Positions 27,292 through 51,410 of a stretch of DNA of 64,000 bases are shown one piece after another. Below the pieces are notes generated by a model, which searched no databases, was not told the origin of the DNA, and saw only the letters and a list, made by a program, of their open reading frames with translations. The first letter of the stretch is position 1. Every line of letters begins with the position of its first letter. This DNA is from Catajapyx aquilonaris (Eukaryota): NCBI GenBank assembly GCA_000934665.2, contig JYFJ02001568.1, positions 1-64,000 on the forward strand, given 5' to 3'. The position numbers and the translations under genes were made by a program.

Positions 27292-30200
27292 TCACTCCAG
27301 CTGAGCACTCCCCGGTTCCCCCTCGTGAGATTCGGTAGAGTAGTCTTCGGCCGAATGTACCTCACCGGAAGAAGCAGTCACCTCCATCGAATCCGGCATA
27401 TCAGTCGGTTCCAGCAACAGAGACTCGGCCATCAGCCTCTGGAGTTGCCCTTTCTTCTGCTTCCTCCTCCTGTTCCTCCTCCCGCCATCCTTTCTCCTCC
27501 CCTTGTTCCTCCTCTTGTCCTTCTTCCTCTTCTTGCCTTTACACTTCCTCCCACACTCTTCCTGCTCCTTATAGTCCGGGCTTCTCTCACACTTCCGATG
27601 CCGAGAATGCCGGACTCTGACCATCTCCTCCGGATCAGACCCTTCTCCTCCCAGGATCTGCCTGACAACCTCTTTGTCCACACTTCTGGTCAGGAAGAAG
27701 ATGCTGCTGACCTTCGGCTTCCTGAAGACCTGTCCGGTGTGGTCAGTCGCCGCCACACGCACCCTCCTGCTCTGACCTGTACCGGTCAATGCCAGATACG
27801 ACATCCGCAGACTCGTCGAATACTTCACAGACGAATATGTGTTGTAGCTATTCAGCTGCACATGCTCCTTGAACCTACACTCGTCCGTGAAGTGGTGCTG
27901 GAAAATAAGGCAAAAGGACATCAGTAATCAGGGTGCTGATGGACAACACGCAAAAATATATGCAGTCGGACGAAATTTGGGCGAAATTGTACTGATTTTT
28001 TTTTTGGGCGTACCGGTACAAAATTCGGACGAAACTAAACAGTGGACGAAACATATTTGGGCAGAATTATTCCAGATGGGGCCAACCCTGTGCATGAACA
28101 TGCAAGGCACGTGCTGCCACCTGCCTTGAAATATAGTGAATGAAAAAAGCGTGAAATATGAAAAGTCGGACAGAATGAAACGTCCTGGAGGGTGGTCTTC
28201 AGCTCATATGTTTTACAAAATGTGTTATGATTTTTCTTGCTGAATATTGTGTCTTTGATTCGCCCAGACGAGCCATACCGGTGCCTAAACCCTTCCCAAA
28301 CAGGCCGTAAATCTCAAGTCATGAGGAATTTCTTCGCAGCTCAACTTTCTTGGACACGGTTCAGAATCGAACCGAGGCCCACCCACATGGCCAAGGCACG
28401 CGACCAACTAGACATAAACTTATGCGCTTTTAAAAACTCTCAAAATTTATACGGCCAATTTAAAACTGCTGGTGACTTACAACACCTGGTGCACGAGAAG
28501 TCGTAAAACCGGCGGGGTTTGTGCATACAAATGTAGGTCAATGTGGAACATGCATCAACATATTATATGACGGTAATCTCTTTTCTTCATGTGCCAGACA
28601 TTCAATTTGGATTCCTTGTGCCCTCCGGTCCGATGTAAATTGGGTGGGGTCATGCTGAATCAAAAAGGTGACGTGGACACACCCCCATGTCTCCCCAACA
28701 AAACGAAGGGCACGGCAGGGATAAAATATTTAAGTTAATTGGTCACCAACTGACCTCAAAAATTCAGAATATTATATTAAGGAATGTAGCTCATACTTAA
28801 TATCCGCAGCTAATTTATTCGCTTATTTAGTGCACACCTTTGACACATTGTATTGTCCTGAACTCCTGAACAATACAAGTCAGGTAACGTCTGATCATGT
28901 GAAATCGCCTGAAGCCATCGGTCCATGGGAAAATATCCCAATTTTGGGTCATTAATTGCCCATTTCTGCCCCCACCATCCGCCTATAGGCATCCAATGAA
29001 TAGCCTGTCCAAATAGTTTGTCCACCGAAAAGACCGATCCCTCTCCTGCATCCATTGTGCAGGTGAGAGTGTGCTGAAAGGGACCTCAGCACATAAAAGA
29101 TATGGAAAAAAAAGGAGGCGGAACTTTTTGTGTGGTTCAAAACAGCCCCATTTGCAATTCAAGAAAAAATGCTGGGGGATGATCCCCTTTTTCTGGTGTG
29201 GGAACCACCAGTCAGGTGTTTTGAATTTTTGGAGGAGTTTCCTTCGCACCTTTTCTATTCCGTCCCTCTGTTGGTCAGGACGTGAGAAAGTCGACGATAT
29301 TCTCATGGACTTACCGCGGCATACACTGTACCTCTGCGGTTCATACAGAGGTACAGACAGCTGGCCAGTCCTTCAATCTTCACCTCTCCGTAGCTCACAG
29401 CCGTCCTCAGTAACACGGCTGCAAATACAACAAAAAAAGTGTTAAACACAAAAAAATAATTAAAAATTGTAATGAAGCTTAAATGAGGCTATGTCCACAT
29501 CGTTGGTCCGAAATAACGCGATTTTTGGCATCCTTTGTATCAACTATCGGGTGTCGCAAATGGGATTTTCATGCTCGACTTTTCCTGCATATTTGGATGG
29601 GTGTGGTCCCCTCCTTTTATTTTTTGTGTTTATATTCCACCACATTGACACTCTAGATATGCAGCCATTTAGGAGGTTGATCATTAGAGCCGCTAAAAAC
29701 CTTAAGTTATTGTGCCTTCACTGCTCAAACAGTGGCCGTATATCATTGGCAGGGATCTGAAACCCCCCCCTTCGAAAGCTGGGTAATGAGAATGGGAAGG
29801 TCCATATTTGGTGTGAACCACCAAAAGTATCGCGCCATCTAGGAGTCTCAAACGGACGTGGAAATGGCTGGAATTATACCCTTAACTTTCTCCGTGTGTT
29901 AAGACACAAATATACACACCAGTAAACTGGAGTGTATATTTGTGCTGAATTATGCCCGTAAATGGTGGGGCCATATGTTACGAACGACATTTACTGGTGC
30001 AAGATCCGGTTTTTTACCAATAGAGTCATAACGGTCATATTGCGAAATGAAACATGAATGTTACACGTTTTCGCACTTGGCCCGTACTTTCAAAAGAAGC
30101 TGCGAATTGATATCACAAAATTGGCGTCTCTTTGTCGCCTATATCTGGCTGACTGGATACACCCTTGTTGTGTCACTTTTTAAGGGCTTCATTGTTCCGG

Positions 30201-33200
30201 ATGTGCGATATTTCTGGTAGTAAAACTGTATAATAAAAGTTATGCCGAATCCGTCCGCTATCGTAAATCTTGGTAGTAAACAGCTTCGTGTATTTGTCAC
30301 TTCCTGCTATTACGCTGACCCAACAGCTATAATTCCACATTATCAGTCAGTGATGTCCAGAGGTCAGTACATTGTTTTCAACAACCAGTTCGAAGAAAAG
30401 ATAAGCAGCTTCTTCATATATAACCGGTTGCATCACATTTTCAATAATGGCATATTGTACTATTGCTACTACATGTGACATTTCATCGTAACACCTGATG
30501 GTGTAATCGGTTGCCCAGATCGAAACTGACATTGACTTTTCGACACGCCCATGACACATTTACGACTCAGAAAAAAAAAAGTCGGGCTTTCCCTACCCAA
30601 GAACAGTATTGTAAGCAGAATTTGATAGCATCGAAAATTTTTATAGTTCTCCAGTCCCCACAGAACCGTAATTCGAAATTGTGGGAAAGAGGTCAAGAAA
30701 TCAGCCAAGGAAGACGCAGATTCATTTCCGGCGGTTCCCTTTGTGTCTCGTATTACAATCGGAATATTTATGGGACCTAGCTGAAGTAAACAACATGGGC
30801 GCTCATATTTTATCGGTTCCATTTCAATGACAATGGGCGCACTTCCTGGTGATGAGATAGTGTCAAGAAGTGGATGTCTTCGGAGCATCTATACCTTTGC
30901 ATATAGGCGTAGATATATTTTTGGGTCTTGGAAAAAAAGTGGGTCGAAGGAGGCATGAACGTGACTTATTTTTCTAAGCGGGGTGTGAATGCCATATTTA
31001 ATATTTGGTCGGAGAGTCGTTAAGATCGGGCAGATACTTATGCTTGATTTATTGACAACCGCAATTGTGTTGGAATCATTGGTTCGTTCTGAAGTTAGAA
31101 GCCTGTAAATTTTTGGGGGGAGCCACAGTTACCATCTGCATAGGGGTCCATAAATATTTGGATTTTTTTTTTTTTCCTACTTACCCTGTATCTCCATGTC
31201 GCTCATAGTCACGCTAGGCCAGTTACTTTTCATCCTTGCATGATGCAACCCAAAATACTGGGTTCGCCCCAAACTTTTCTTGATATTTAGTTATTTTGTT
31301 TACACCTAAGGGCTGGTTCGTCTTCGGCAGAATTTTTGTACGTGCAGTACGTTACACATGATGAATAGCTTGTACGACTACCGCTATTTTCCTTGACAAC
31401 AATGTCATATCCGACACTAACCTAAGCCAGCAACTTGTGGCGTCGGTTATCCACAGATTAGAATCGGGTTCACCAGCAGACAAGAAAATAGTGGGTGAGA
31501 TTTCAGCCAAAGCAGTTTCCTTTGGGCCAAAAGACCAGACATTCATCTAACCTGTCAGACAGAAGGAGCAACAATCCCCCATTTAACAGCACGCTTCTAG
31601 ATATTTTTTTTTCATTCCTTCAGCTTCCCGCAGAGGTCTTCATGTGGAGATGTTTTAAATTTTTTTTATTTCAAAAAAAGGGCACGGCGACCTTCTTCGG
31701 ATGGCACTGACATATGCAACACACGCACTCTAAGGTGTAAAACAATATTTCCGGGGTCACGGGGTGTTACCTGTGATAAGTTGCGTATACTATTTTTAAC
31801 TACCCAGCTTGGAAAATATTGTTGCAGAGGAATTATGAGCCCGGTTGACAAGTCAAGGGAAGAGAAAAAAGTCTGACTTTTTTTTTTTTTTTTTACAATT
31901 TTCTCTGTAATTTTTCCAGAACGCGACCAGAATTTTTCTTAAAGAAGGAGCTTTTGTTCGCTGAATAGTCGGCTGAATAATTTTTTTTTGTAAATCACAT
32001 TTCGTGTAAAGTAATGCCGGAAAATACAAGGTGATTCAACACAGCAGGCTTCTCTTCACGTGAAGACCCGTTTGTATGCAGATTATATTCCCCTTGAAAA
32101 ACACGTGTCACCAAAATTTACCATCACACAATGCGCATGTTTGAAATTCATAACAATTGTCTTCAGAAGCCTATCCATAAAGATACTTTCCACGAAGATG
32201 AAATCACAATATCAGCAATTATTCCAATGGCTGCTGATTTACGGACAAAGCCTTAATTTCTGGGCATACTAATTACGGAGGTCACCCACGCAAATGAGGG
32301 TCTGTGGGCGTGGGTTGAGCTCAAAAAAATTATATGGTCAACACGAGGCAACGTTTCTTACGAAATGAGTCACATTCCTCCCTTAATTTTTGTCAACCCC
32401 TGTAAATTACTCCCCACTGTTACACCCTGAATACTTAATTATTTACAAATTAGCAATATTTACGCCCGTTTGCAATGAAGGTCACCTAATTGTGCTGATT
32501 GGTCACGAAGCACCGCTTCTAAGGGGGCGAGGTCACACTTCGAGTGGCACAACTTCCAGTAAAATAAACACTCCTTAGTTTGAAGATTTATTACAAGGGG
32601 TTGGGCAACGGAATATTTATGCAGTAGCTGACATTTAAAAAAAAAATTTCAACAAAAATATGTTGCGCCTCACATTTCTGCAACTTGTACGTCATTGCGA
32701 ATGGGTTAGTGGCCTATATTCAAGGATAAGAAGGTGTGACCTTGATCATGAAAAGTAGGTGCGACAATGTTTCAATATTAATGCTGGCTGTAGCAACCCG
32801 GAAAGATCTGGTATAGTTAGGCAATGGGTCATTGTTTCCCCCACCTTTACAGTCTTGGGTCTATGCCATAGCGACAGCATGGTTGACCCATGGTGCGAAA
32901 ATAGTCCCAGTGTGCCATTCTTAAACCGATACAGAATTAGCACCTTGCATTCCACTAAATAATCCCCTCATTTGTAGTTACATTACGACAAAAAGCATTA
33001 TTTGCCTACATTTCACGATTCTGAAAAAGAGAGAAAAGAAATCGGGATTTTTGAACCCAATATTTTCGCTTAGTGACGACGACACTTTTATGCAAACCGG
33101 GTGCAAATTTAATGACAGCCTGATACCCTTGATGTAAATTCAAGTCGAAAGTGAAGAAATGCCAGGTCGTCACATGAAGCCAAGCCAAGCATCCGAAAAA

Positions 33201-36200
33201 TAGTCTGGACCATTTCCAGCAGACGGCAGACGACAAGGTCTCGGGGAGTCACAGGACGAGACACTGTCCCGTTGTCATCACTATACCCATCCGAATTATT
33301 TCGTACAAAAATTCGTATCGTCTATTACAAAACCAGTTTAATCGTACTGAACATTAGTTACTGGCCCAACCAGATTTTTCCTGCAACTTTTTCAGTAACG
33401 CATGTCCTGCAAGTTGCATTCACTGACCTCGCAAATTGATATTCTGTTCATGTTGCATGACCATACATCTCTTTTTTATAGCCAAATGCATTTGTCTACA
33501 AAGTCATAACGCGGCGGTCAGATCGTAAAGGCAGTGACGCCTTCCCAGTAAATCATATTTAAGCTCAAAAATTGCCAGTTTTTTGACCGCCGCCATATTG
33601 ACATATTGATGGAGAGGCAATTTTGTACTATTTACTTTCCTAATTAATCTCGCCATGTAGTTTCAGCAGCCAACTGCTTCTCTCATCAGACCGCACGTCC
33701 ATTAGTGAAAGTTGGGGGGGAACTTGGAAACTTTTTCCAAAAACTTTTTTTTGGGGGGAGAAGCTCCCATCAACACTCACTCTAACTGATGGACATGACC
33801 TTTTTTGCCCTTTTTCCGAATGAACCAATGACTCTCTCAATGTCCGGAAGTCTAATAGGCAGGAACAGGCGTATCGAATGCCATTCCATGACATGTGTAA
33901 TCCATCCTGGGAATTGTCCCAAAAAACTGTCCTGGACATCACAACATTGCCAAAGTTTGGTGACAGCCCTCCTATTTTTTCTGATGTTTTTTTTTTCGGA
34001 AATTCCCAAGGGACTTCTCATGTACACCACATTAAACTGAGTGTCTCGATTCTTCCATTCGGATGCATCTGAAGTGTCTGGGGGCCATGTCTATCGCTAT
34101 AGCCAGCTGCTATAATTTGGAAAGAAAAAAATTTGGTTTCCGTTAAGTACCTCGTAGCATAAAAAAATTCCAAGCATTTGGGTACAAAATGAGATATTTC
34201 AAGAAGTGAGGCTAATGTCACGCCCGGTTGGTTTTCCAGGTAGGAACCCCTGACCATTGTTGGTCCGATCAAAAGCCTCGTTTGTGTCCATTCAACGTCT
34301 TTGGCCAGGCAAAGTTAGCGCCGGCCATGGCAGATGGGCAGGTTGGTCCTTTCTTTTGTGGGCCAGGACATTAAAGTTTTGGGAAGCAGCACCTTTCGGA
34401 GCCAAATAAATACGAAAAAATCATTGCCGCTAAAGGCTCCCTTTGTATACGTGCACAGTATGTGACTGAAAAATATTTGGTTTGTCAAAGCAATGACACA
34501 AGTCACGTACGCATCTCGTTACACACTGACTTACATATAACCTTCTCGAGGTCGGACATCAAGAGTTGAAAGGCCTCTTCATGATTTTGCCCGGCTGGCT
34601 TAGCACTGCGATGCGCTATCACGTGTTATGTCATTGCCCACCCTATATGTGCAGTCACGTTCGCGCAAAACATACCCGAGAAGACCATATATGCGAATGG
34701 TATAATAAATCGTGATCGTCTGGGCGGTCTGGAGGTGAAGGTCTTACATAACATCCTGGAACGACTAAGCACAATTTTCTCATTAAAATCGCATTAATAA
34801 TTCATTAAACATACCTGCTGCAGGCAATATTTGGCCAAAACATTAGCCACAATTTGCAGCAGGAATATCGTTCAACACATATGGTCAGATGGATTGTTTA
34901 TACTGTTTTTGTTGCGTGGACCGCAATTTTTTCAACGCAATTGATCCCAAACGCACTTTAATAAATAACGTATCGACGACTCAATTCAACTCAGACGTCA
35001 TTTGTCATCATAAAAGCGGACGTGCACTTGGCACCAGGATTTTCCGAGCAGTTTGTCCGACCAGTTACATCCATTTGTTTCCCGTTTCTTCGGCCGAGCA
35101 ATCCGCAAAATATTGCGGTCTATACGCAACGGTCTACGTCATATTCAATCGAATCCTACTGAAGGACATTTTTTGTCGAAAAAAAAAATGGCTGAGGAAG
35201 TCTCATAGGTCTAGCAATATGCCGAAAACAAGCCCATCAAACCCGCCCTGTAATTTTCGCCTCCGATTCGTAACGTGTCACATAAAAAAAAAATATGTGC
35301 GAAAGAGCCAAGGCCGGACCGGCAATTAAGTTAGGCCCCGACCTTTTTACATAATTGGCCGTGGCATTCGGGAGACCATGCTGGTTACATGTGAAGGCAT
35401 CCTAGGTGTCATCTGTTACGCCTAGTTTGCAGCAAAAATTTGAAAATATATTGGCAAATAAGTTGGGGGACTCAAAAAAAATGTCACCGCCACGTGCTGC
35501 CATTTTCCTCCAAAAATAGGTCCATTTCTGAAACTCTGAGCCCAAAAACCAAATTTATGTCCCCCCAAAAACCTACTCTCACCCTGACAAGATAAAAGTT
35601 TTCCAATGGGAACCATTTTTTCTTTCAAATCGCTCAGTACTTCAGCTAAGTGCTTCAAGTGAGATAACTCTATTGGTCACAATGTTAAGATTTCGATGGT
35701 TCGTTTGGGTTTCCCTAAGCACAGGTTATGAATGGGCAGGCAGGTGGTACTGACCGAGAAAGAATAGACTATATGGATCCCATCCAACTTTTTTTTTTTT
35801 TTTTGAGAAGCTACGTGCAGGAAATTCTCTCTCAATACTTGAGTACAGTACAGGCTTAATTTCATTGCTGGCCATTGAACTGCAATCGCACCCAGAAACA
35901 TGGCCATCCCAGGTTCAGTTTCTGGTCCGGATGCTACAGTTCTATGAATCTGACTTCCCCAAAAGGATATTGACCCCAATTAAATAGGATAGTTTTAACA
36001 AGTAGCTGTCGAGTGATAGCATGTACTATAGTGCCATTTCTGGTGGTCGAAATTTCGTTACACGTGCCCCCATGCTGACGTGGTGTCTGGAAAATAGACG
36101 CCGGGCGCCGAGAGCTGACCGCGACGGAAGGTTCCATTAACTTAATATGGAAACTGAGGGTTGACAGTTTTTCAGACTGGGATCGGAGTTATCATCCTTT

Positions 36201-38220
36201 TTCCCTGGCTGTCGCCAAAATTATTGCTGGCATTACTGCCAATTCTATTAAGACACCGGGGGGGACCAGTCTCGCAGTGGGGGATGGGCGCTATAAAAGG
36301 ACTTATCTACAAAGTGGGTCAGAATTACAACTTTTTTTAAGCATGGAAATGTCCTTTAAAGGAAATGTTCTAGTCAACTTGCTGCAACAGCTGTACTGTT
36401 TTTGTGTCCGGTGATAAATGCCAAACCGCCAGGTTTTTATCTCAATTCCAGAGAAAACCACGCACGGCAGAGGTGTCTAGTAAAAATTCTTGGAATGTGT
36501 ACACTTAATAAGCAAAAAATATATATTACAGTGACATCAGTCAAAAAACTGCCGGAAAATATCATCACCTAATATGGATGCCCCATAGATTTGATCCGAC
36601 CTGAACTGACCACAGTTAATCTTATCCTGGCATGTTCCATGAAATTCAACTGCACGCGATGTTAAAGCCACATGCTTTCGGTTTCTCACTTTAAAAAAAA
36701 TTTAAGGACCAATTACCGGTTTTACGATCCGGAAGTTCAGTCTCTGTTTCCCCCACCTTAGAACATATTTTTTGGAGGAAGTCCGCACCTTTCGGAAATC
36801 ACTAGTGACACCAGCGCAGTCTGGAAGCATTTTTTTTTTTGAAGAGGGACGTCCCACATGATTATGTCCCACTAAAAATGGCAGTGAAGTGAACCAGACG
36901 AGCATTTTTTTTCGACTAATGCATATTCTCAACGGCACCTGCCATCAACCTCAAAAAAGTCCCCCCTCTTCTCAATTTGAATGGCGGGGTCGTGATTCAC
37001 ACAGCAGGAGTCAGAACGAGCCTGTTCCGATATAAGAGTTATATTAAAAAAAACTATTTAAAAAAAAAGTTGGCGATGACATTTGTCATTTGTCTTCATC
37101 CGGTCGTGTCACTTTATGTCAATAATGTGCCGGGTATAAACACCACGGGGTTGCTTATCCAATAATAGCCACGCCGGGCTATCAAATAAAATTGTTTCGT
37201 AAAATATGACCAGTGAAATTTCGCTCGTTGAATATTTTAAAGGCAACAATTACTATGAAAAGCTGCATATTTGAGCGAAAACTATATTTCCACCGGAAAA
37301 TATCTTTGGACCAAAAAACATATCCCAAAACATTTTGGAATTTCAAAGCAACCCTTTCTGGACTGGTTTCCCTATCTCCTTAAATCATCAAGAGTGCTCC
37401 CCCCAAAATGATGTCGCAACAAATTAACACCTCCATCTGATTTGGTGGGGTCCACGAGAGAAAAGGGGATAAACATCCGGAGCCCCTCCCACGAGTATAT
37501 AAAAATTTTCTGAACGTGATTTATGTGACACCCTATATTCTTCAGGTTTGGCACTACCGTTTTGTTATGGTGCCTCCAGCCGCAATTTTTGGCTCATAGT
37601 GACGCAATAAAAAAATTATATTACCGCGCCCTCTCTGCTCTATGCAAATGTAAAATATTCGTCCAGACCTTCAGCAGCTTTTATGTACTATAAATTATGC
37701 TCAGCATGATGATGTTCATCATGTGGTTCGGTTAATTTATGGCGGAGACAATACACACGGGGGAACCACTGTTTTTGTTTATTTACTGTCTGGTTTGACC
37801 TCTGCAATACCGTCATACTGTATATGAACTATGATGGGAGAACTTACCATAAGTGCTGTTCCTGTCCGTGGTACCGTTGACGGTACCGTCCGGAAGTATC
37901 TGCAGATGATTTCCATGCTTCCCGAAGAGCATACAAGTCTTGCTGGATCCAACCTGCTGGGACAAGTTGGTTCCTCTGAAGGCCCTGTCACCAATCCCAG
38001 CTCTGTTTTCGGCCACCACATCGTCGAACTTTCCCTGTTGGTGCTGGATGGTCGTAGGTCGCCTTCCTTTGGTCAGCTTGGTCAGCATCCCATGACTCGA
38101 CATCTGGGTCAGGTCCGTTTTCAGCTCGAAGGCCATTGTCCCTCTTCCTCCGGACACTACCACCATTGTCGTCACAATCACTAAGAAGAGGAGCCCCCAA
38201 GGGCATAGGGCACAATGCAT
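27292..38220 (-). CDS. bnl: Fibroblast growth factor, Branchless-like, with signal peptide and basic C-terminal tail (about 360 aa)
   Basis: Three exons: 38220-37848 (phase 1), 29418-29315 (104 nt, the canonical FGF exon-2 size) and 27897-27292. Core: HLQILPDGTVNGTTDRNSTY|AVLLRTAVSYGEVKIEGLASCLYLCMNRRGTVYAA|HHFTDECRFKEHVQLNSYNTYSSVKYSTSLRMSYLALTGTGQSRRV. The N-terminus is hydrophobic (WGLLFLVIVTTMVVVSG). CLYLCM and YLAL.G.GQ.RR are Branchless-like. FGF identity is secure; the subfamily label is less so. Confidence 0.88.
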
Positions 38221-40649
38221 GACGGGTCGAGACTGTCCTCTCTACCGGCCCCCACCCAGACCCGGGGTCACTCCGGGCCTGGGTCACCACAGATTGCCAA
38301 GATCAATTTCTGACCCTTCCTTCTAGAGACATTGTCACAGGGTCACTCGCGCACTTGTACACTGAGCACACCATCACTGCTGAAACATTTTGGATGAAAC
38401 ATTAATATCACACAACATGACAATTCCGTTGTAATTATTGTTAACTTGGAAATTTTTTTGATAACAGTACTTACCTGATTGGAACATGTGGACAGCAGTA
38501 TTCTCCATGGCGAGGTCCATGAGGGGACTGATTCCTCTTTGCCAACTTGGTCCCACTGACTGTGCCGCCACCGCACAGCCGCGAGAGGACTCTGCCCGCA
38601 TTTTTTTTTTCTTCTTCTTCTTCTCTCTTCGTTTCAGCCCCTCCTGCCCCTTGCACCCTTCTCAAGGGCCAAATGGAAGCAGAGAGCCAGCGACCACTCG
38701 GCCAGGGGCGGGCAATCAAGGTGGATGGTTGCCCGCAAGGGAATCGCATTCTCCATGCTATCCTCCTAACAATGTTCACACTTTCGATGGGGAGGGTCAT
38801 TTCAGAAAGTGGTTTCGTATTATTTCGTGTCATAAAAATTTCGGGTTAAGTATATGCTATATGACAGTTAGCGGCTGGCAGTAAAGCGGCCGTTGTGCGA
38901 ATTTTTTCAAATAAAAAAAATAAATTAATAATAATAAAAAGTGGTCGACTTGGCTCAAACAACAAGACACTTGGTCACGGTTCACCCTTTTAAGAATGAT
39001 GTAACAGTAGCACGTGTGTGCAAAACATATCTGCAAGGACACTGACCTTCAGCACACAAATTGGGCCTGATCATTCTGCAGAAAATGGATTATGCAAATT
39101 CAAGCTGCAGCCGGTGGAGGTCCACGCCCAATTTGCGATGTGCATAATACATGAAGGCTGCAGCAGCAGGAGCGGTACATACTGAGAACGGCAATGTCTG
39201 GTGTCATCTGTTCCGGAGGAGTGGACCGTGACAATTGCGACATAAACCAGGGGAGAGCGCAGACAATGCGTGTTGACACCTGCTGTCTCGTATTATTTGC
39301 AAGCGATGCGTGACTTTTCAACGAATCACTGCTTGTAAATTGAGTTTCGGGATCGTCCCCCAGTATAAACATTGTCATCAAAATGTTGTGCTTTTTCTGC
39401 TAACCGAGCACCGCCTGCTGCTCCAGACTGTACCGCCTGGTCTCACCCGCGTAATGAACTAATTAAGTATTCGGTTAATGAATGTTCTCCCAGGGGAGAC
39501 AGCAAAAGTGCATTCCCTGATTACATCTCTCATAACTGCAGGGTAAGTGCACTGAGCTCCAGATGTCACTTCTCAAGAAATCCTCAACTATATCAGTCGT
39601 AACCTCTGCCAGGAAATGTGAATGTATTCTATGCTATATGTAGTGCGAAAACGACTCTAGAATAAAGCTTGAGGCAGGTCAACGACATAGATGCTAAAAA
39701 CTACTTGGGTGCAGTCCAGGTAAAGGAGTAGCAAAGATGGACCGCTAGACCTGTTGTCTCTAGGCGTCTAATTGTGCAAAAACACCGCACAAAAAGGGTA
39801 TTAGCCACCATGACACTCTAAGGACACTTAAGATGGTGCTTGCTATAAACAATAATAACTTCCGCACAATGCTTTTCCACGCTTTCGTTCCGCTATTGTA
39901 CCCAAACCAAGACCAAGTCACGTCAAGTACAAAGGTCTCAGAGCAGGGCAATCACATTTGCGATGGACATGGCGACCGGGGAAGATATTCGCATTTTATG
40001 GTCTAACAAGCGGCCTGTGAGTGACAGTTTACATGACAACTGGTTTTGAAAGCCAAAGCAGCCCCACTTCACCTGTATTCCCGTCCCTCACTTGGTCGAG
40101 TGTCTTTTTTCACAACAAACGATGAAAAGATTGCGCCAAAAAAAACCGGATTTGCAAAAGGCAATCCAGCAGATAAGGGTATTTAGACGACACGTTACAC
40201 GTTCAGACTAATGGTAACGGTGTGAAAAAAAAAGTGTGGTACGTGACTAGGGAAAATGTGAACCCCCAGGGCCAACCTTGCCCTCACTTGAGAAAGGCCC
40301 GCGGTTCGAAACTGAATTTATTCAAACCTATCCTCATTCTGTCCCGTAATAATATGTGTCCACATGAAACCGCGCAGGAAGAACCATACTGATGTGTCAC
40401 AACAGCCTGTGAGTTTGGTGAGGTTGGCATGTCCCTCACATTCGTTGGGTTGGGCCCGGTCCAGAGTAGGACCTAAGCCAGAAGTGTGACATTTTCTCTA
40501 TTACCCTTCCAGACAAAACGAGCTAAATATACTGCCAGTAGTTGTTGAGCTGAACGACAGACAACTCTTCCCAACTCCAAATTGAAACGTGCTAACAACC
40601 AGCGACCTTATCAGGGACGAACACTAGCCGCACTAACAGCAGCAACAAG

Positions 40650-40650
<1 letters not shown>

Positions 40651-40721
<71 letters not shown>

Positions 40722-40808
40722 TACTATTACTACTACTACTACTATTATTATTATTACTATTATTACTACTACTACTACTAGTACTACTACTACTACTACT
40801 GCTACTGC

Positions 40809-40872
<64 letters not shown>
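40651..40872. repeat. Compound (ATT)n/(ACT)n microsatellite upstream of MICU3
   Basis: ATT run, mixed ACT/ATT core, then a second ATT run, directly visible. Confidence 0.97.
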
Positions 40873-41075
40873 TGTAGTAGTGTACACTTTTTGAAACAAG
40901 AGTGACTGAACTACTCGTACTTGCTTATTGTGATTCATAACATAATTTATTGTTATTTTGAATATAGACCAGATTAGTCAAGAGTGTTTCAAACTTGGCG
41001 CGTGATACGGCTTCTCCCCAATCGAAATGGCTTCTCTCCGGCGAGCAGCCATTGGGATCAGCTGCTTTGTAAAAG

Positions 41076-43137
41076 ATGGCGGCCAAGAGACTGTTCCGAT
41101 TCCGGGTTCTTCTCGGGTCTTCTCCGGGGCCAAGGGCCTCGTGTCGGCCCCCGGGCAGGGCCATGTCCACATTCAGGAAGACGGCGGGTAGTGGGTACCC
41201 GTGGTGGCTCCTGGCTGGGGGAGGGGTCGCCTGCGCTATGGCTTACAGGGCTTACTCTGGAGGACAGAAGGTGCATGCGGCCAAGGCCAGAAACAGAAAG
41301 GTAAAAAATGTATACTGTCCGTTTTACTTGATAAGAAAAAATAAATTTTAAATAAATTGCATTAAAACTGGCAGTCAAACCCGTTTTTGTGAAATAAATA
41401 AATAACAAAAATGGACATTGCAAGTGGTGATGACAAAAAAAATTGGGATCCCCAACATTGCTACCGAGCGCCACAAATCTGTCTGTTTGGTATTCTGCAA
41501 TGGGCCGTTTTTCAGATACTGTGCATCATACGTGTTGTAATGTGGAAAAGTGTAAACCAGTTTCTTGTCCACTCAGAGTATATTGTAATCCAGTTTATTC
41601 CACTTTTCTCATCACCTTGTGAATACAAATTGCTCTCTTCATGAGTGAATTACTTTTTGAGTACACTAACCCAAAGTAGTGTGCATGTCACATAGTCTTC
41701 GTAATTGGCCTCTTTAGTCACACAATGAGATTCAACTACTAATTGTAAGTCCATGTGCACTGCAAATGGCTTGTGCCATACACCCTCATGTCATGATCAA
41801 TGCTTTTGACAGCCTTTAATTCTGCCACATTGACACAGAATATATTTGTTTGGCTCTACAAAGGATCTATAGCCTATAAATTGTACATGATGAGAGTTAG
41901 TCAGCCTGGAGTGCAGAGTGATATGTAGTCAGTCTGGTCCATGGCCAACTCATGTGGGGTTCAATATCTCCCCTCCCAAGGTGAATTTTTGCATGTGGGA
42001 GGAACTAATCCGCTTTTAAAATGCGACAGATACCTTCATTGTCCACGTCCAGCGGGCTTCAGGTATAGGTCTCCACCCCTCAACTCCCACTGATAGAGCA
42101 ATTACACCGCAACCTATTTGGACTGAGAAAATAATCTGCATATCATGCCTTGATGGTATCAGCCGAAGCAAAACTCTTTCACGGCCAGTAGAGGCCAACC
42201 CCTCTGGGGAAAAAGGGGGCACACAAGTTATATTTTAGTCTACATGTCAGCATGTAAATATGGACAAAAATGTTCCAACAAATCAAATGAATATATTTTT
42301 GAAGTGACATATGACATTTGTCATGCCTGTATTTTTAAGAGTAACGGTATCATTTGGATTGAAATAAGATGAAATCACATTTCATATTGAGATCACACGT
42401 GGTCTTTTGCTGTGATGTTATTTGTGAACATCCTGCTTTCTCTATAAAATTATTCATCTCCTGTTGATTTTTTTATTATTATTTAAAAAAAATTGAAATC
42501 GATAAGAAGCCGCGGATGGAAACGGGAGCCTCGAAATAAGCAAAAAAATGTCCGCCGGGTAAATCAAACAGGCCAAACACGTGTTCCCCATTTGGCCCGA
42601 GGTTCCGCCTAATTAGTACTGCTCCAAGATGGAATTTTTTTTTTGTGTTGTTCCTGTTTGTTGTGTTCAGCTTTTATTTTTTGAGCCAGGTCGAGGATGA
42701 AGGCAGGTCGGGTCTCTCCTTTTTACCAACCTTTACCTGCCAGCACCGTTTCTCACAATCCGCCTCTTTCCATCCAGACCACCGCAATTTCATCTTCAAA
42801 TATTTTTTTTGTTTGTTGGCAACCCAGCCTTGCCCACGAGCTGCTGGCATGTAATGTCGCAGGGTTGTCACATCCAGGATTTATTGAACAAGTGCCCAAT
42901 CCACCTGTAAGTCACCTATGACCACAAACAATTAGTCTGCGCATCTCCAGCAAACCGAAAGTGAATGCCGAATTTGGGTGGCCAAGGACACCCAGTGCTG
43001 GTCGACACCTGACAAATCACATTCTGGTCAATAGGTCATGAAGGTGGTCACTTGCATTTGGTACCTGCTGGGTAATTAATTAATTACGGCACTAGTGTTG
43101 CCACACGCTCTCAAATAACCCTTATGTAAAATAGTGC

Positions 43138-43194
<57 letters not shown>

Positions 43195-46100
43195 GTAATA
43201 ATAATAATAATAATATACCGTCTGGCGTCGCTATCGCTCCAGTGATACCAATCCCGAATTTAGTGCCAATGGATGGGGTTGCCAAGCGCCGAAGGCGCGC
43301 AATGGGGGAGAAGCCCAACAGCCCAGTGCTAATAGCCATATGCCTAATTTTAATAGCTACACTAAAAATTTGAAATGCGTATGAGCCTACACACTATGGT
43401 TACATTTTTAAGGCCTAATGTAATTTTGTTTATTTTAATAATTATGTCAAATTTTGTAGATACAAGTGGCAACCGGGTTAGGAATGCGTGGACCTTACAT
43501 GTTATGCCACCAACCCGCACGCTCCTAGCTTGCGCGATGCTCCGGGTACTTTATTACAAGGAAAGGCCGTAACCGCCTTGATTATAATAATTTTTTGGAG
43601 GGCCCCCACCTTCTCGATCTTGCCGATTTGGAAGGAATGTTTTTTTTTCTTTTCTTTTCTTTTCTTTTCTTCCTTGTTGGATTGCCGTCAAAGTGGGCCG
43701 AATTCCTTTGATTCCTCTCAGCATGCGAGTTATTTACAATGCGGCCGATTTCATGACAGATATACCAAAAAATAATCTTAAGATCGTGTGCTCGAAATTC
43801 TTGGGTAAGAGTGAGGGAAAAAAATGTTCATGGCCAGTAGGTCAAATTTAGTGATATTGCCACGAATTTTTTTTTTCCAATAATTATTCACATCACTGTG
43901 ACGCCTTATGAACTTCTAACGCTGGACGAAATTTTGAAATGACTGATGTGAACAAGTGTGGTATGCTAATGAGCTGTAAGTTAAAATAGACGCTATTGTA
44001 TCTATAGGAATTCCAGCTAAGGTGCACGACCCCATGTCTCCAATGAGCTCACCTGCCCGATATTGGGTTGCGACAGTCATAGAAATGGACAACAATGTGA
44101 CTGACTCCAGACGCAATATCTTAAGGGAAGAACTTTTGGCTCGACTTTCAACAGATTACAATCAGAGGATCGTAAAAGCATCCAGGAAAAGATGAATTCC
44201 CCTTTTGGGGATTGCTTCTCTGAAGCACCCTATTCTTTTTTTCTCTCTCTCGAATCGGAATCTTCTTCATCCAACCGACGAATAAAACCCGGATTCAAAC
44301 CCGGACCCCGGTTGAGATGTCTTATTTAGTTATTTTGTGAGTTCAAAGTCAGTCCCCCCCCCCTTTCTACCCCCCCCAAAAAAGTACCCTGGCTGAAGAA
44401 AGGAATGCGGCGGAATGATTGGGATCAGACCACCATGTAGAGAAAAAGAACCTTTAAAAAAAATGTTTCCAAAGGAGGTGTGCATCATCTTTTTGGGGGG
44501 GGGGCGCCGCCCCTGAGGGGGTTTTTTCCTTATTTTTTCTTATAACCTGGGCGGTTAGACGTCTTTAGAAAAAGGGGGAGAAAAAAAAAAAATCTATTTT
44601 TCAAATTAGGTTATTTGGGCCAGGCGGCTGTGGACGTCAAAGGTAACCAGTGCATTTTTTAAAGATATAGCTCAGAATTTTTTTTGAGGAACCAATGCAT
44701 AACTCTAGCTACAGGCACTCACGCGAAGGGACTGCCCAATTGACCTTTGAGGGGGGTTTTTGAAGTAAAGTGCCCTCAACGTGCAATTGACCTCCAAAAG
44801 TGGACACAAAAGCCAGTTTTTGGAATTTACAGACGGGGTGTCATGCTGTCAGCAACGGACAGTTTTCAGGGGGGGTTGTCTTCTCATAAAGTGTGTGCCG
44901 CTCTAGACCCCGATTTCACCACCACAATTTGTACGGTGAATTGTCCACACCAGCAACCCCAGTCCTTCCGTGGTGGTCTCCCCTTGCATTTCGGCGGCGC
45001 CTTTAGCAGTAAATTTATCCTCAGACGCCCTGCTTGGGGGGGCTTGACACCAAGTGATGAATGCTCCTTGTCCTTCCTCAGGAATCCATCTTTTACAGAA
45101 AAAAAAACTAGTAGGGGGGGGGAAAAGATGTTAACTCAATTTCTGTTGAAGGATATACGAGACACTGGCGCCACGTGACACTTTCGACCATTGAAATCGC
45201 CATATTTGACGCTGGAATTTTTCATTCTTTTCAAATTATTTAGGGTGGTCCTTTCCGTTCAAGGACGACCTTGTTTGTGGTCATGACGGACGCCATCTTT
45301 GATAGGTGACTTTCGACGCTTCACCTGGGGTTACACGCTTTTGTGATGTTTATTTCCCAGGGGCGGTTGGGTAGGCACCAAGCAGGAGGGGGGTTCTTCA
45401 GCTGCCTCCAGGTGCAGATGGCCCCCAGAAAAAGTTCCTTATTCAACCTTCCAGCCTAAATACCTACCCACCTACTGATTTACTAGAGACCCGCCGTTCT
45501 GTACAAAGGAGAGCGCGTGCTGGGGGTTTTCCGCCTTTATTGCACCGCTTTTATTGGCCAGATTTTCCCATCCAACCACGACGGGATAAACAAAAATTTG
45601 TCCACTAACTAGTTGGACCATATCTGGAAATCTGGCACGAAAAATGCGGAAAATATGGCCATGTAGCAGACCTGAAATTTTTTTCAGATCTGCTACCTTA
45701 CTCCAGTATATGAACTGTAATTGCCACGACCTGACACTAATAGGAATAACAGTTCACCTAAATCCGCTTGGACAACAAATAAAATCCGACAAAGGACAGG
45801 AAGGACCACCCTGGTGGAGGATTAGTCCATTGACGGATTTTGGGGACATATTTTCTGGAATCCGCTTTTCGTGTGAATGGATTGCTGACAACCACTGCCA
45901 TCCCTTTTTTTGAAACAGGATGACGATTTGATGAAGGCGGTGAAGTTGACGTCTCGTGAGCGACGGTTCATCAAGTTTGCGTCGGTGGAATATGACGGAC
46001 AGATATACATGACACCACAGGATTTTCTGGAGAGCGTCGTCGAAGCTGAACCTAGACGTATGTTCAAATTTTTTTTTAAAGTATATCCATAGTGTAAAGT

Positions 46101-49100
46101 GACACAACTGTTTATTACAACAGCGAGACTAAAGAGACGCCTGCTGAACGACGCAGATCTGGAAAAAATAAAGGACTACACGCCATCAATGCGACGTGGT
46201 ACACCACAAATGTTCCGCAACCTGAGAGACAGAGGTATGGCCATACTCTCTGAACACTATAACATGTTTTTTTTTTAAACATATATATTTTCAGGCATTA
46301 TTTCCTACACGGAATATCTCTTCCTCCTGTCCATTTTGACACGTAAGTACCTCAAGTTCTGGAAAGTCGTGACCGTATACATGTAAATCCCGTAATTTAT
46401 GGTTCAGGTCCCCAATCCGGATTTCGCATCGCGTTCAACATGTTCGACACCGATGGCAACGAAAGAGTGGACAAGAAGGAATTTCTTGTGGTAAGCCAAT
46501 CAATTTTAAGGGTGAATCGCGACCAGACGCCCCCATTTATGGACTTGTTATTCATCACTTGAGGAGGTCAACAAGCAAGCAAAACATAGCCTTTAAAATC
46601 GATTATGTGCAGTCGTCGAATTTCGCCCTTGAACTTGAATCCGCTATTTTGGGACGTCTTAAACAGCATGTTTTTAATTGCGCGAAACTTTTTTTGACAT
46701 GCAAATTACACGTTGCGGATTTGGCAGCATGTGGGCAGAGGTCCCCTCCCGATTTGCCGGTTGCCCTTTTTTGGAAGGGAGGGTCATTATTGCGAATACG
46801 TGATGGGAATGTTGGTGATCGCATTAACGGTGGTTTTTTGTTATCTGTGGGTAGATAGATCTTTGTTATTTATAGATTCGGCAGCTGATGGCCGGAGTTC
46901 TGAAGAAGATGATGGACGAGTCCCACGACCCACTCACGAGAAAGGCTGTGAGTTTTGAGTACTGGGTGTTTCGTAATTGGACGGCCGGAAGTGCGCCGAT
47001 TTTATGTTGGAAAATGTAAAATGACGATGAGGACACAATCGCACCTTTTAATAATTGCGGTAATGACTGTTAAAAAAACCCATGTCGTAAAGAAGTAACT
47101 GTGTGAATGAGTTTGTGGTACACCACATGTGAGAAAAGCGTGTGGTGCATTTTAAGTAAAATATACACAGCAGTATTTTGCGAAGAAATCTTCAAAATCA
47201 TTAAATTATAGCAGTACAGCGCAATGAAAAAAGGAGATGCTAAAGCTCACGTAAGAAAAAGAAGTGGTTGTGTGAATAGGCCTTTAAACATGGTATGTAA
47301 CAATGAATAACAATAATTACAAATTGCTTATTATGTAGCTACATGATAATTAAGATGCTTTTCACATATATGGTGGCCACATATCGTCACTCTACAGTCT
47401 TCATTTTTCCGGCACTTAGCCTTGTGGTCGTGCAATTATGAAACGCCTCTGTAAAAGAAGCCTGTGGCGTCCGAGTCCGATGTGCACCATTCATCGCAAT
47501 ACCTTGTGTGCATAACCGTCACTTGCTGTTAACCCAGTGATGTTTCAGGCCAGGGGGGTCCGACCTTGACTCAATCCGTGATTCCAGGCGGAAATTCCGC
47601 TTCAGGGTCGGACACCTCGGTTGCAGCAGCCCGACATGTTCAGTGTCTCCTGCTGACCACTTTCTCGTTGCAGAGTGTCCTAAATGTCTTTCTGTGTTTT
47701 AGCTGCGGCGCCTCATCAGAGTGTCCGAGTTGCAAAAGATCGGCAAGCAGAACAAGGTTGTTTTGGTTTTTGGTTACTAATTGAGATGCTGGCGTGACGT
47801 GCTTGGGTGTGCCATGTTACAAGTTTGTTATTTTTTTGGGCGGCTAACAGTTGTTTTGAAAGTGTGCGGAATGACACTGAAAAATGCTAATCCTGATTTT
47901 TATGGTGCCATCTCACGGGTGAGAACGCTATTCCAAGAACCTTCAAACATGGTTCCTTGCCCATAACTCCTGCTGGACACACGGAACGGGATGGACAAAA
48001 AGCTGCATTTTTCTGTGTTGGGAATGACCTTTAAAAAAAGGCTATGAAATCCCCCAGTTGATTGTTCCTTCCCATGCAAAGTACCGTTTCCCATTTTACA
48101 ACCATTTAAATCACTGAATCTATGTCATTAATTTTGTGGCTTTTGCTTACCTTTCAGACGCGTGTTCCATGATAGTCACCTAACGAAGCATGGCCGGGGA
48201 AATAATTGTGCCCCTATTTTCAGCTGGAGAAAATATTCAGCAATGCCTGGAAGGACAAAAGGGGCTTGGTGCCAAAACCAGATGGGAAGGATGGCGAAGA
48301 AGGTGATGATAAGCCAGGTGAGCCACCAGCAGAAGGGGAGGACAACACTCCAGAAGAAGAAGATTACGTGGATGATGAGCAAGGCTTGCAAAGACGTCAT
48401 GTCGTGGACACTACTCTGCTGGTCCACTTTTTTGGCAAGAGAGGCAGGCATGAACTGCGCTACGAAGATTTCCGGCGGTTCATGGAGAACCTGCAAACTG
48501 AGGTCCTGGAATTGGAATTTTTTGAGTTTTCAAAGGGACAGCCAACCATTTCGGAGATGGATTTTGCCAAGATCCTCCTCAGATACACATACCTGGATAT
48601 GGATGAGTATGCTGAGAATTTTTCTTATAGCACGTGAAGAGTAACGCTGCGCATGACTTTTGACCATCTCAGAGCATCCTGTATTAATACTACTTCTCTC
48701 AAGGTATGAAATGTATTTGGATCGACTGATGGATCGTATCAAGGAGGAAAAAGGAATCCACTTCCTGGAATTCAAGGCATTTTTCCAGTTTCTGAACAAT
48801 CTGGAGGACTTTTCGATTGCAATGAGAATGTACACTCTGACTGAGAGACCCATATCTCAAGGTAATAGTTCACTTTGTTACCTGCCATATTGCCGTCAAT
48901 GAGTGTTTAATTTATTTATTAAAATGAGGCTAATATCTTCTGAATTGAATTTTGTTCACAGAGGAATTTCAGCGGGCAGTCAAAATTTGCACTGGCACCA
49001 GTCTGAGTGCACATCTGGTCCGGACTGTTTTCCAAATCTTTGATGATGATGGTGATGGTCAGCTGAGCTACAGGGAGTTCATAGCAATCATGAAGGATCG

Positions 49101-49248
49101 ACTTCATCGTGGATTCAAGGTTAGTTTGTAACTTGCAATCAAAATTCAGCAGGAATTTCATCACCGACTTCTCTTTCAGTCGTATGCCAAAAACGAAGGC
49201 TGGGATGCCTTCAAATCATGCGTGAAGCAGGAAATGAAGAGTTTGTAA
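41076..49248 (+). CDS. MICU3: Mitochondrial calcium uptake protein 3 (MICU2/3 family, EF-hand)
   Basis: Exons: 41076-41300, 45919-46057, 46124-46234, 46295-46342, 46408-46490, [46876-46947], [47703-47756], 48224-48606, 48704-48861, 48962-49119, 49180-49248. The N-terminus is an Arg-rich mitochondrial presequence. Motifs: SRERRFIKFASVEYDGQIYMTPQDFLESV, GIISYTEYLFLLSILT, EF-hands FNMFDTDGNERVDKKEF and FQIFDDDGDGQLSYREFIAIMKDRLHRG, and C-terminal FKSCVKQEM. Confidence 0.93.
43139..43215. repeat. (AAT)n microsatellite in MICU3 intron 1
   Basis: AAT run with one AGT interruption. Confidence 0.95.
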
Positions 49249-49739
49249 CTCCATTACTAAAGTGCCAAGTGCTGTAGTGCCATTTCTTCCACTTCAATTG
49301 TTATCTCTATGCATTATCGTTGCAGGTTCATAACAGGTGCCAAATTATGGATGGGGTCAGGAGACATGGAGAGTTTATCGCCACTTTCTAGTCATTAACC
49401 AGCAATTAAGAAATTGCTTAAATCAGTTTGTACTTAATTGGGTCATTCATAAGTTACTTTGTGTGGCAGTTAATATTTCATACTATTCATAATCCACAAT
49501 CTAACATTATCATGCGCAATATACATGCACCATAATTCACCATATGCTTAGAGTAGTAAGTCACTAACCAGCATGTGTGGATAGAAGAGCTGACTTGTCT
49601 AAAAGGACGCACTGAAGTATGGATGAAGTTCTACACGTCACAACTACACTGCCATCATTTCGAAAACATTCCATCTGCACATAGCAGTAAAGTCGAGTTT
49701 CTAGGTGAGTTGCTTGGAAATTCAAACCTTACCACTATA

Positions 49740-50163
49740 CAGGGTGTATCTGAACTCAGTGCCCCGACGTATATGACTGCCTTCCTAGCCACCAGAGGAT
49801 CGATTTAAGTATAGGAGTCATATGTCTGGGCAGCCTCATTACTGAGATACACTCTTTAGCGATTTTTGCCTAATCGCTCCTTCCGACTTTTAAATATAAT
49901 TTTCTGGTGTAACTAGCCAAAGAGGCCTTACCACCTGTGGGCAACAAACCAACAAAGTCCAGCCCCCAGACCTTCCTGAGCCTTCCCACTGGGGGAGGGT
50001 TCGATGGGTGGCCTAACCGACAGGATATTTTGTACTACATGTTTGCGGCCAATTATCTCCGTAATGAGGCTGCCCAGACATATGACTCCTATACTTAAAT
50101 CGATCCTCTGGTGGCTAGGAAGGCAGTTATATACGTCGGGGCACTGAGTTCAGATACACCCTG
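49740..50163. mobile_element. Tc1/mariner-type MITE, 424 bp, about 110-bp terminal inverted repeats, TA target-site duplication
   Basis: The left end, TA|CAGGGTGTATCTGAACTCAGTGCCCCGACG...GCAGCCTCATTAC, is the reverse complement of the right end, GTAATGAGGCTGC...CTGAGTTCAGATACACCCTG|TA. I counted 2 mismatches over about 110 bp. There is no transposase ORF inside. Confidence 0.92.
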
Positions 50164-51410
50164 TATACAGATCTATGCTTCTCGAAATGATGGTAATATA
50201 TGTACAAGAAAAACAGTCCATTTTGGACCAATTTCAGCATCATCCTAATGGCAGACAAAAGCCATCCAACGGCTATTATTACAAAAAAAATATATGGGCC
50301 CATATTTATGTGATGTTTCACCAGAGGTGGGATGGATTTAATTTCTTTTCTTCACACAGGATTTGTGCAAGGGCAATATTCACTTGAGACCTGTTTCAAA
50401 CCTAAGTCGAAAGTAATCAACTGAGCCTAGGTGGGTTATTAACATTGCAACGAAGAAACCTTTAAGCCACAGCTGAGAGTACACAATGTAATTCACATCC
50501 ACTTCAGGCAGACTCGACCTGGAACCTGGCTCTTTTTGACTTTATTATTTTGCTGAAACTGTTCATCTTTGCACTGCTTCCAAGAAATGGCACATCCATT
50601 AGATATCCATCACAAAAGTATCCGTGTCACAATTTAAAAATCTAATCATTGTGCCTATTCTTTCCCAGAAAATGTATGACTGGATTTCCCAACAATTAAT
50701 AGCAATGACAACAGGATGTCAAGCAAAACGTGTGATGGTGCAGCCCAGCCTAAGTCATATCAAAATGGTCAAAGGCCCCAATTTTTGTTTGTGTGGTGCC
50801 CGAATTATTTGTAAGCCAGGTTAAGTCTCCCCATCTGTAACCTATGGAAGTTCCCTGCAAAAACATCCTCAAGTTTTTAGATTACGTTATAAACCGAAAG
50901 TTGGCAAGTAATGACGTAATGAGTAACGCAAAATACTGCTTTGCACGTAATAAATCTCTCTATCCCAATACACTAACTACCAAATGTAATGGTTGTGAAT
51001 GCATTCTAGTGATTATTTGTACTTGATTCATAATTTATGAATGCCCCCATGCCAACTTTATCATTGCTTGTACATGTTAAGAAATGAAAATCGCTATATA
51101 CACAACAGTGTTGTTATTACTAGGCTTAAATTACATATGTTGCTTGTCTATGTTCTAGGTACAACAAAAGTTAGTGGAACATATGAGCTCACAAAACTAT
51201 GCTGAAGAGAACACCTTCAACATGGAAAGCACAAGAGCCAGGTTTGTACTCTTGACGCGAAAGCTTTGCAATCTGCTCTAGAGCAAGAGTTTTGGGCTAC
51301 CCCGGGGGGGAGGGAAACAAAATTCCACACATACATTTAGACACAAAATACTGTGGGCCCAACATTTCAGTACGTAACGTGTAACAGCTGCAATTCTTGT
51401 CACAATGGTC

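Follow-up and report, generated by a model that had tools for sequence, protein, structure and literature searches.

Where did Branchless (Bnl), the insect ligand of the Breathless fibroblast growth factor (FGF) receptor, come from, and does the gene that stands next to it on the chromosome hold part of the answer? The question is raised by a stretch of 64,000 nucleotides from Catajapyx aquilonaris (assembly GCA_000934665.2, contig JYFJ02001568.1, positions 1 to 64,000 of the forward strand; the whole of this stretch is called the window), in which an FGF gene on the minus strand (27292–38220) and a MICU gene on the plus strand (41076–49248) are divergently transcribed. In vertebrates, FGF20 and MICU3 (EFHA2), and likewise FGF9 and MICU2 (EFHA1), stand in the same relation, where an FGF gene directly adjoins a gene of the MICU2/3 branch and both human pairs are divergent, as in the window. 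We consider it rather probable that the pair in the window is this vertebrate pair as handed down from the bilaterian ancestor and that Bnl is the arthropod orthologue, or pro-orthologue, of FGF9/16/20.

Passages of Oulion 2012 (PMC3420111) give the origin of Bnl as unknown and offer two scenarios for it, namely, loss of the gene except in arthropods, or capture by a baculovirus and subsequent return. The survey in the same passages assigns FGF1/2, FGF8, and Bnl to arthropods and FGF9/16/20 to nematodes and, by best BLAST hit, to Lottia. In passages of Chipman 2014 (PMC4244043), a centipede FGF is weakly grouped with FGF9/16/20 and described as possibly the orthologue of insect branchless, and passages of Shalaeva 2021 (PMC8224027) present Bnl as a possible derived FGF9/16/20 on the basis of weak trees.

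The two genes and the region between them

The FGF gene has three coding exons, all of its junctions are GT/AG in the open reading frames (ORFs) and junction sequences, its intron phases are 1 and 0, and its spliced product is 360 aa long (coordinates of all features are in Table 1). Three coding exons with a middle exon of 104 nt are the typical structure of an FGF gene. The matches to the Pfam FGF family (PF00167) are colinear over the three exons, those in exons 2 and 3 being above the 24-bit cut-off and that in exon 1 reaching 19 bits. Exon 1 encodes a hydrophobic N-terminus, then RGTNLS as the pre-core motif, and the strands that open the core, with LQILPDGTVNGT. Exon 3, which runs from an AG acceptor at 27898–27899 to a TGA at 27292–27294, encodes the second half of the core and, behind it, the post-core segment FLTRSVDKEVVRQIL, a stretch rich in His, and a poly-basic tail flanked by Cys.

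The MICU gene consists of nine coding exons that form an open 466-aa frame from the ATG at 41076 to the end at 49248. EF-hand matches lie in the ORFs 46347–46562 and 48949–49131, the first in exon 5 and the second in exon 8, and the pair is matched in Pfam at E 4.5e-9. When the large exon 6 was searched against the PDB, human MICU3 scored 91.7 bits, MICU2 68.3 bits, and MICU1 about 21 bits, which places the gene in the MICU2/3 branch and not with MICU1, the identity that the original prediction had given it. MICU3 is a neuronal regulator of mitochondrial calcium uptake. The least certain junction of the model is that between exons 6 and 7 (48600–48720), where the exon 6 donor is a weak GTGAAG and a second exon 7 acceptor, further in, fits the alignment to human MICU3 slightly better. 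At this junction the model retains about 11 residues (YEMYLDRLMDR) that are absent there in human MICU3, and the site may be one of alternative splicing.

The two start codons are separated by 2,855 nt, in keeping with the divergent arrangement and the spacing of about 2.9 kb first noticed in the sequence. The outer limits proposed at that time correspond to the stop codons of the two genes (27292 and 49248), and the proposed sizes of 8.4 kb for FGF intron 1 and 4.6 kb for MICU intron 1 agree with the splice boundaries. These two introns and the 2.9 kb of upstream DNA between the genes make up a block from 29.4 to 45.9 kb. Of the other MICU introns, all except intron 5 are 60–100 nt long, and introns 2–4 are 60–66 nt.

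Within this block, scans of Pfam (with the scanned ORFs), Rfam, and tRNAs detected no protein domain, no Rfam family, and no tRNA, and the block has no repeat in common with the remainder of the window. In particular, no Pfam family was found in the six scanned ORFs of at least 70 aa in FGF intron 1, which also has no Rfam family, or in the scanned ORFs of at least 70 aa in MICU intron 1. No gene was detected in the gap between FGF and MICU, and the two ORFs of at least 70 aa scanned there, 38465–38881 on the plus strand and 38474–38845 on the minus strand, match no Pfam family. The tandem-repeat scan found a pure (ATT)74 microsatellite at 40651–40872, about 200 nt 5′ of the MICU ATG, and a pure (TAA)26 microsatellite at 43139–43215, inside MICU intron 1. 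Compared with insect Bnl loci, the block has a single nucleotide match, a 43-nt coding stretch of FGF exon 1 (37866–37908) that is 86–91% identical to metagenomic insect Bnl loci.

Branchless features and subfamily affinity of the FGF

Judged by its sequence, the FGF in the window is of Bnl type. It carries SCLYLCMN in exon 2 and YLALTGTGQSRR in exon 3, which match the Bnl-like consensus ATCxYLCMDxCG and YLALNxRGQPRK, and the Branchless-type motifs of the original prediction are thus borne out. Among 12 Bnl-like proteins, the Cys pair of CxYLCM occupies the invariant alignment columns C112 and C116, and YLALxxxGQxRK/R is invariant or nearly so. A HMMER scan with exon 3 over 1.84 billion representative proteins gave 50 matches at E ≤ 1e-3, with a best score of 53.4 bits and identities of 29–49%. 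About 40 of these 50 were inspected, and all except P0039 show the Bnl pattern, which consists of the pre-core RSANLSHITG, LQILPDGTVNGT, ATCLYLCMDxCG, and YNTYSS in its N-terminal part and of YLALNxxGQPRK, the post-core VLTxxVxxERVExL, a His-rich stretch, and a Cys-flanked poly-basic run in its C-terminal part. The core is complete in 22 of the 50 matches, and all 22 fall in a single clade with P0062, whose source name is "fibroblast growth factor branchless." P0039 is an FGF4/6-like half domain joined to an FGF19-like domain and probably reflects a gene model that fuses members of a vertebrate FGF cluster. Against a database of 5.8 billion sequences the exon 3 query returned no match at either length range, the half-domain query being too weak there.

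The spliced product gives the same picture, with scores of up to 137.6 bits against Bnl-like proteins over residues 76–324, far past the core, and with 100.7 bits against P0062, whereas none of 68 FGF1-named proteins exceeds 84.7 bits. In a FastTree tree of 63 cores (the window FGF, 54 Bnl-like proteins, and eight FGF1 as outgroup), the window FGF branches off outside all 54 Bnl-like proteins, as their sister, at a weakly supported node (SH-like 0.64), and its nearest Atlas clusters are arthropod FGFs. Features common to the window FGF and insect Bnl are the pre-core R-S/G-A/T-N-L-S, LQILPDGTVNGT, the CxxxC motif CLYLCM, and YLALxxxGQxRR, followed by the post-core LTRxV...V..L, the His-rich stretch, and the Cys-flanked poly-basic tail. 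The likeness is one of sequence, and there are differences, in that the window FGF has 360 aa where many Bnl-like matches have 700–977 aa, in that its identity to insect Bnl in exon 3 is no more than 32–49%, and in that it does not have the hydrophobic C-terminus of insect Bnl. We read the window FGF as the orthologue of Bnl in a lineage beyond the insects sampled, probably a non-insect arthropod.

To which vertebrate subfamily is a Bnl-type FGF closest? We built a Bnl profile from nine Bnl-like segments together with the exon pieces of the window and searched it against all PDB sequences. Human FGF20 (124.2 bits, profile positions 6–159) and FGF9 (121.8 bits, positions 7–161), represented by PDB entries 1IHK, 1G82, 5W59, and 3F1R, are its best natural matches, followed by FGF10 (112.9 bits, positions 10–130), FGF1 (up to 103.3 bits, positions about 20–126), and FGF13 (100.1 bits, positions about 19–125). 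In the printed profile alignments, only FGF9 and FGF20 are aligned in the flanks outside the core. Before the core, Bnl NLSHITGxxRKIQxY is aligned to DLDHLKGILRRRQLY of FGF9, and the counterpart in the window is TNLSQQVGSSKTCMLF; after the core, Bnl VLTRxVxxERVExL is aligned to FLPRPVDPERVPEL, and the counterpart in the window is FLTRSVDKEVVRQIL.

In a search of proteins with the same profile, the named rows above 119 bits among the matches listed are all insects, and one of them is named "fibroblast growth factor branchless." The 120 matches listed, of 463 in that search, are all Bnl-like or FGF1, with FGF9/16/20 not among them. We do not regard this as a fair ranking because in the PDB search human FGF20 and FGF9 outscore FGF1 with this very profile.

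The support from the fold comparison is modest and mixed. An AlphaFold2 model of a Bnl-like segment reached a predicted local distance difference test (pLDDT) score of 88.4 with a 148-row alignment (a 12-row alignment gave 39.6, which is unusable), and it predicts a post-core helix at 151–162, as in human FGF9 and FGF20, and a low-confidence N-terminal helix. Foldseek ranked FGF9 first for this model by a small margin (E 5e-13 over 151 columns) and aligned FGF20 over 163 columns, with FGF10, FGF12, FGF2, and FGF1 following within a factor of ten. Alignments by VIA-align extend past model residue 152 or so, to 160–165, with FGF9 and FGF20 only. Identity to FGF9/20 in the fold alignment is about 31%, and there are local differences: FGF9 has GLYLGM where the Bnl type has CLYLCM, so that both Cys are absent from FGF9, and, unlike the Bnl type, FGF9/20 have a two-residue insert after YNTYSS and no basic tail. 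Taken together, the comparisons show a core that does not discriminate between subfamilies and flanks that lend modest support to FGF9/16/20 specifically.

Origin and retention of the pair

The age of the pair is taken from the literature. Irimia 2012 (PMC3514665), in the passages that bear on this, reserves the term conserved ancestral microsyntenic pair for unrelated genes whose linkage recurs in four or more of 11 major animal lineages, infers 593 such pairs for the bilaterian ancestor, and names Fgf among the developmental families in conserved pairs. The example given there is zebrafish fgf20a–efha2, where H3K27me3 lies on the fgf gene and not on its partner, as expected of a developmental gene with a bystander. 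Passages of Forconi 2013 (PMC3636272) describe EFHA and ZDHHC genes upstream of both FGF9 and FGF20 in tetrapods. The idea of an ancient bilaterian microsynteny, put forward for the window in the original prediction, is supported by the literature, where the pair has been published as such (PMC3514665, in part), and for the same reason it is not a new inference. The second half of that idea, that Bnl is a diverged FGF9/16/20, finds some support in the profile and the fold, while single exons, VIA-align, and Atlas point elsewhere, as set out below.

Each half of the idea is already in print, and their union through an adjacency of Bnl and MICU3 was found nowhere in the literature searched. Within Creative-Commons PMC papers and bioRxiv, we found no publication pointing to a Bnl–MICU3 adjacency and no paper in which Drosophila bnl and MICU3 (CG4662) are both named, and passages of Tufi 2019 state no map position. 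The third FGF of Strigamia maritima has the same ambiguous profile as the window FGF, the two being likened by description and not by sequence, and the passages on Strigamia FGFs (PMC4244043) name no MICU neighbour. The window supplies one more example of an ancient gene pair already in print, and what it adds is an FGF partner that is clearly of Bnl type, unlike the FGF9 and FGF20 partners of MICU2/3 in vertebrates.

Because the partner of MICU is of Bnl type, because its flanks resemble those of FGF9/20, and because Bnl and FGF9/16/20 have complementary distributions in published surveys, we infer that the best reading is that Bnl is the arthropod FGF9/16/20, and we regard this as moderately probable. 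If about 15,000 genes and about three FGF genes are assumed, an FGF would adjoin one named gene by chance in about 4 of 10,000 genomes, an estimate that depends on these assumed gene numbers.

A number of results weigh against this reading. The advantage of FGF9/20 in the profile search is about 10 bits and seemingly comes from the flanks. VIA-align ties all FGFs at Z 20.6–22.0, with FGF10 nominally first (Z 22.0). Taken alone, exon 3 is nearest in the PDB to FGF10 (E 5e-6) and FGF2, with FGF9 at 0.05 and FGF20 at 0.19, exon 1 is nearest to FGF1, and exon 2 is nearest to FGF7, FGF18, and FGF9. Atlas feature searches lead to FGF5, FGF12, and FGF1 clusters and not to FGF9. The insect Bnl-like proteins P0060–P0087 are source-named branchless, FGF22, FGF3, FGF7, FGF10, FGF5, and FGF16, and such inconsistent names for orthologues indicate that the core sequence says little about subfamily. 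On the side of gene order, neither the 55 ORFs of 70 aa or more nor the 129 ORFs of 40–69 aa between 49.3 and 64 kb yielded a DHHC domain, and so the vertebrate ZDHHC–EFHA–FGF trio is not seen in the window. A tblastn search with the MICU protein of the window gave nothing at E ≤ 1 in the 17 metagenome contigs with Bnl exons, which are short and give the search low power. The long first introns, finally, could be neutral, enhancers in them being predicted only by the published model.

How might the two genes have stayed together? A secreted Bnl-type FGF and MICU3 are transcribed divergently from their common 2.9-kb upstream region. In the regulatory-block model published for the pair in zebrafish, to which the original prediction's enhancer reading of the long introns corresponds, developmental FGF enhancers would lie within the bystander MICU gene and around it, and a break between FGF and MICU would sever the FGF from its control elements, which we take as the most likely reason for the retention of the pair. 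Of the marks of such a block, the window has the head-to-head genes and unusually long MICU introns 1 and 5. In the vertebrate pairs as in the window, the FGF is a developmental signal and the MICU gene a housekeeping or neuronal bystander, and long non-coding stretches surround the upstream region of both genes. What lies between 29.4 and 45.9 kb would fit a regulatory landscape, for which this block is a candidate. We slightly favour the view that Bnl is neither arthropod-specific nor recaptured from a virus but is the direct arthropod orthologue of FGF9/16/20, which a shared regulatory landscape has kept next to MICU3 from the bilaterian ancestor onwards. Taken by itself, the proposal that a developmental gene with its bystander explains the persistence of the pair is a tentative one, to which we would give somewhat less than an even chance.

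Its main alternative is plain slow rearrangement, where the ancestral adjacency was simply retained in the lineage of the window, without shared cis-regulation and with neutral long first introns. We regard this as possible and on balance doubtful. The pair is still present in vertebrates, where its survival spans more than 500 million years and two genome duplications, and both long introns flank the upstream region, whereas MICU introns 2–4 are tiny, all of which argues against simple inertia. The developmental-gene-plus-bystander chromatin pattern of the zebrafish pair (PMC3514665, in the passages cited) argues the same way. The long introns, on the other hand, hold no detected conserved element, RNA family, or domain, and slowly evolving genomes retain most conserved pairs, 448–492 of 595 according to passages of the same paper, as slow rearrangement would have it.

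Hidden paralogy is a further explanation, where the MICU-linked ancestral FGF was duplicated early and different lineages kept different copies, making Bnl a paralogue of FGF9/16/20. Tandem duplication of FGF genes is frequent, as the FGF3/4/19 cluster illustrates (PMC3420111, in part), and in several comparisons the Bnl core does not come nearer to FGF9/20 than it does to FGF10 or FGF1. We nevertheless find it unlikely, in that it requires additional duplications and reciprocal losses, in that no arthropod has both Bnl and FGF9/16/20 in the published surveys (PMC3420111, in the passages cited), and in that the flank similarity is specific to FGF9/20.

It is quite improbable, in our view, that Bnl belongs to FGF7/10/22, as the parallel between tracheal and lung branching might suggest, and came to lie beside MICU3 secondarily. 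Among natural PDB entries exon 3 matches FGF10 best, FGF10 is also the second-best family for the Bnl profile and the nominal leader in VIA-align (scores above), and several insect Bnl-like proteins are source-named FGF22, FGF10, FGF7, or FGF3. With the flanks included, however, FGF20 and FGF9 outscore FGF10 with the profile, the conserved vertebrate partner of MICU2/3 is FGF9 or FGF20 (passages of PMC3514665 and PMC3636272), and a secondary relocation to exactly the MICU3 neighbourhood is improbable.

That the adjacency arose independently in the lineage of the window, by convergence or chance, is very improbable given the prior chance of about 4e-4 estimated above, the divergent orientation shared with vertebrates, and the publication of the pair as linked in at least four major lineages (PMC3514665, in part).

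Surrounding genes and the meaning for Branchless

On the far side of the FGF lies a plus-strand gene that matches RhoGEF, PH_19, and WD40_2 and runs tail-to-tail with the FGF 3′ end. This is presumably the domain set of ARHGEF10/10L/17, and human ARHGEF10 likewise lies on 8p, the arm that carries FGF20–MICU3. Some 500 nt beyond the stop codon of MICU there is an inverted repeat pair (49736–49849 and 50054–50167) of 114 nt and 98% identity, which might represent a small foldback element or a hairpin of the 3′ untranslated region. The remaining features of the window are collected in Table 1. Elsewhere, metagenome contigs hold 17 loci with Bnl exons, seven of which have the exon with LQILPDGTVNG (exon 1), preceded by 35 to 6,937 nt of upstream sequence, and the 70 ORFs of the three longest exon-1 loci (L003–L005) match no Pfam family.

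Table 1. Positions of the FGF and MICU genes, their common upstream region, and other features of the window
Feature	Position	Strand	Basis or remark
5′ intergenic region, ATG to ATG, common to both genes	38221–41075	.	Coordinates, tandem-repeat and Pfam scans
FGF exon 1, coding sequence	37848–38220, ATG at 38220	-	PF00167 profile positions 3–32
FGF intron 1, 8,429 nt, long non-coding	29419–37847	-	Splice boundaries
FGF exon 2, 104 nt, with CLYLCM motif	29315–29418	-	PF00167 positions 37–66, E 3e-7
FGF intron 2, 1,417 nt	27898–29314	-	GT/AG boundaries
FGF exon 3, coding sequence including stop	27292–27897	-	PF00167 positions 69–118, E 3.3e-9
MICU3-like exon 1, 75 codons, presumed mitochondrial presequence (putative role)	41076–41300	+	ATG, GT donor
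MICU3-like intron 1, 4,618 nt	41301–45918	+	Splice boundaries
MICU3-like exons 2–5	45919–46057, 46124–46234, 46295–46342, 46408–46490	+	Splice sites, open frame
MICU3-like intron 5, 1,733 nt	46491–48223	+	Splice boundaries
MICU3-like exons 6–9	48224–48633, 48704–48861, 48962–49119, 49180–49248 including TAA	+	Splice sites, open frame
Tail-to-tail neighbour, 1,141-aa open Ser/Asp/Glu-rich exon, no Pfam family	2997–6419	+	
Tail-to-tail neighbour, RhoGEF exons	15474–15656, 16193–16336	+	Pfam
Tail-to-tail neighbour, PH_19	17092–17295	+	Pfam
Tail-to-tail neighbour, WD40_2	19720–20661	+	Pfam; gene span 2997 to about 26000
Exon with Abhydrolase_6 match, downstream of MICU	54113–54373	-	E 3.8e-7
ORF with weak DUF4728/DUF7027 matches	754–1209	-	Below Pfam cut-offs

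The position of a gene is evidence independent of trees, and the origin of Bnl is beyond what trees of the short FGF domain can settle. The window adds such positional evidence to the existing proposal that Bnl is the arthropod FGF9/16/20. The presence of Bnl in the MICU3-linked slot of the FGF9/FGF20 type would fix the orthology of Bnl, and the FGF set of protostomes would shrink to three ancient genes (FGF1/2, FGF8/17/18, and FGF9/16/20). The pair, at about 22 kb, would also serve as a compact model of a regulatory block whose vertebrate form extends over hundreds of kb. Finally, if chordate-only subfamilies such as FGF7/10/22 descend from the same ancestral gene, the parallel between Bnl and FGF10 in branching would be a matter of homology and not of convergence.

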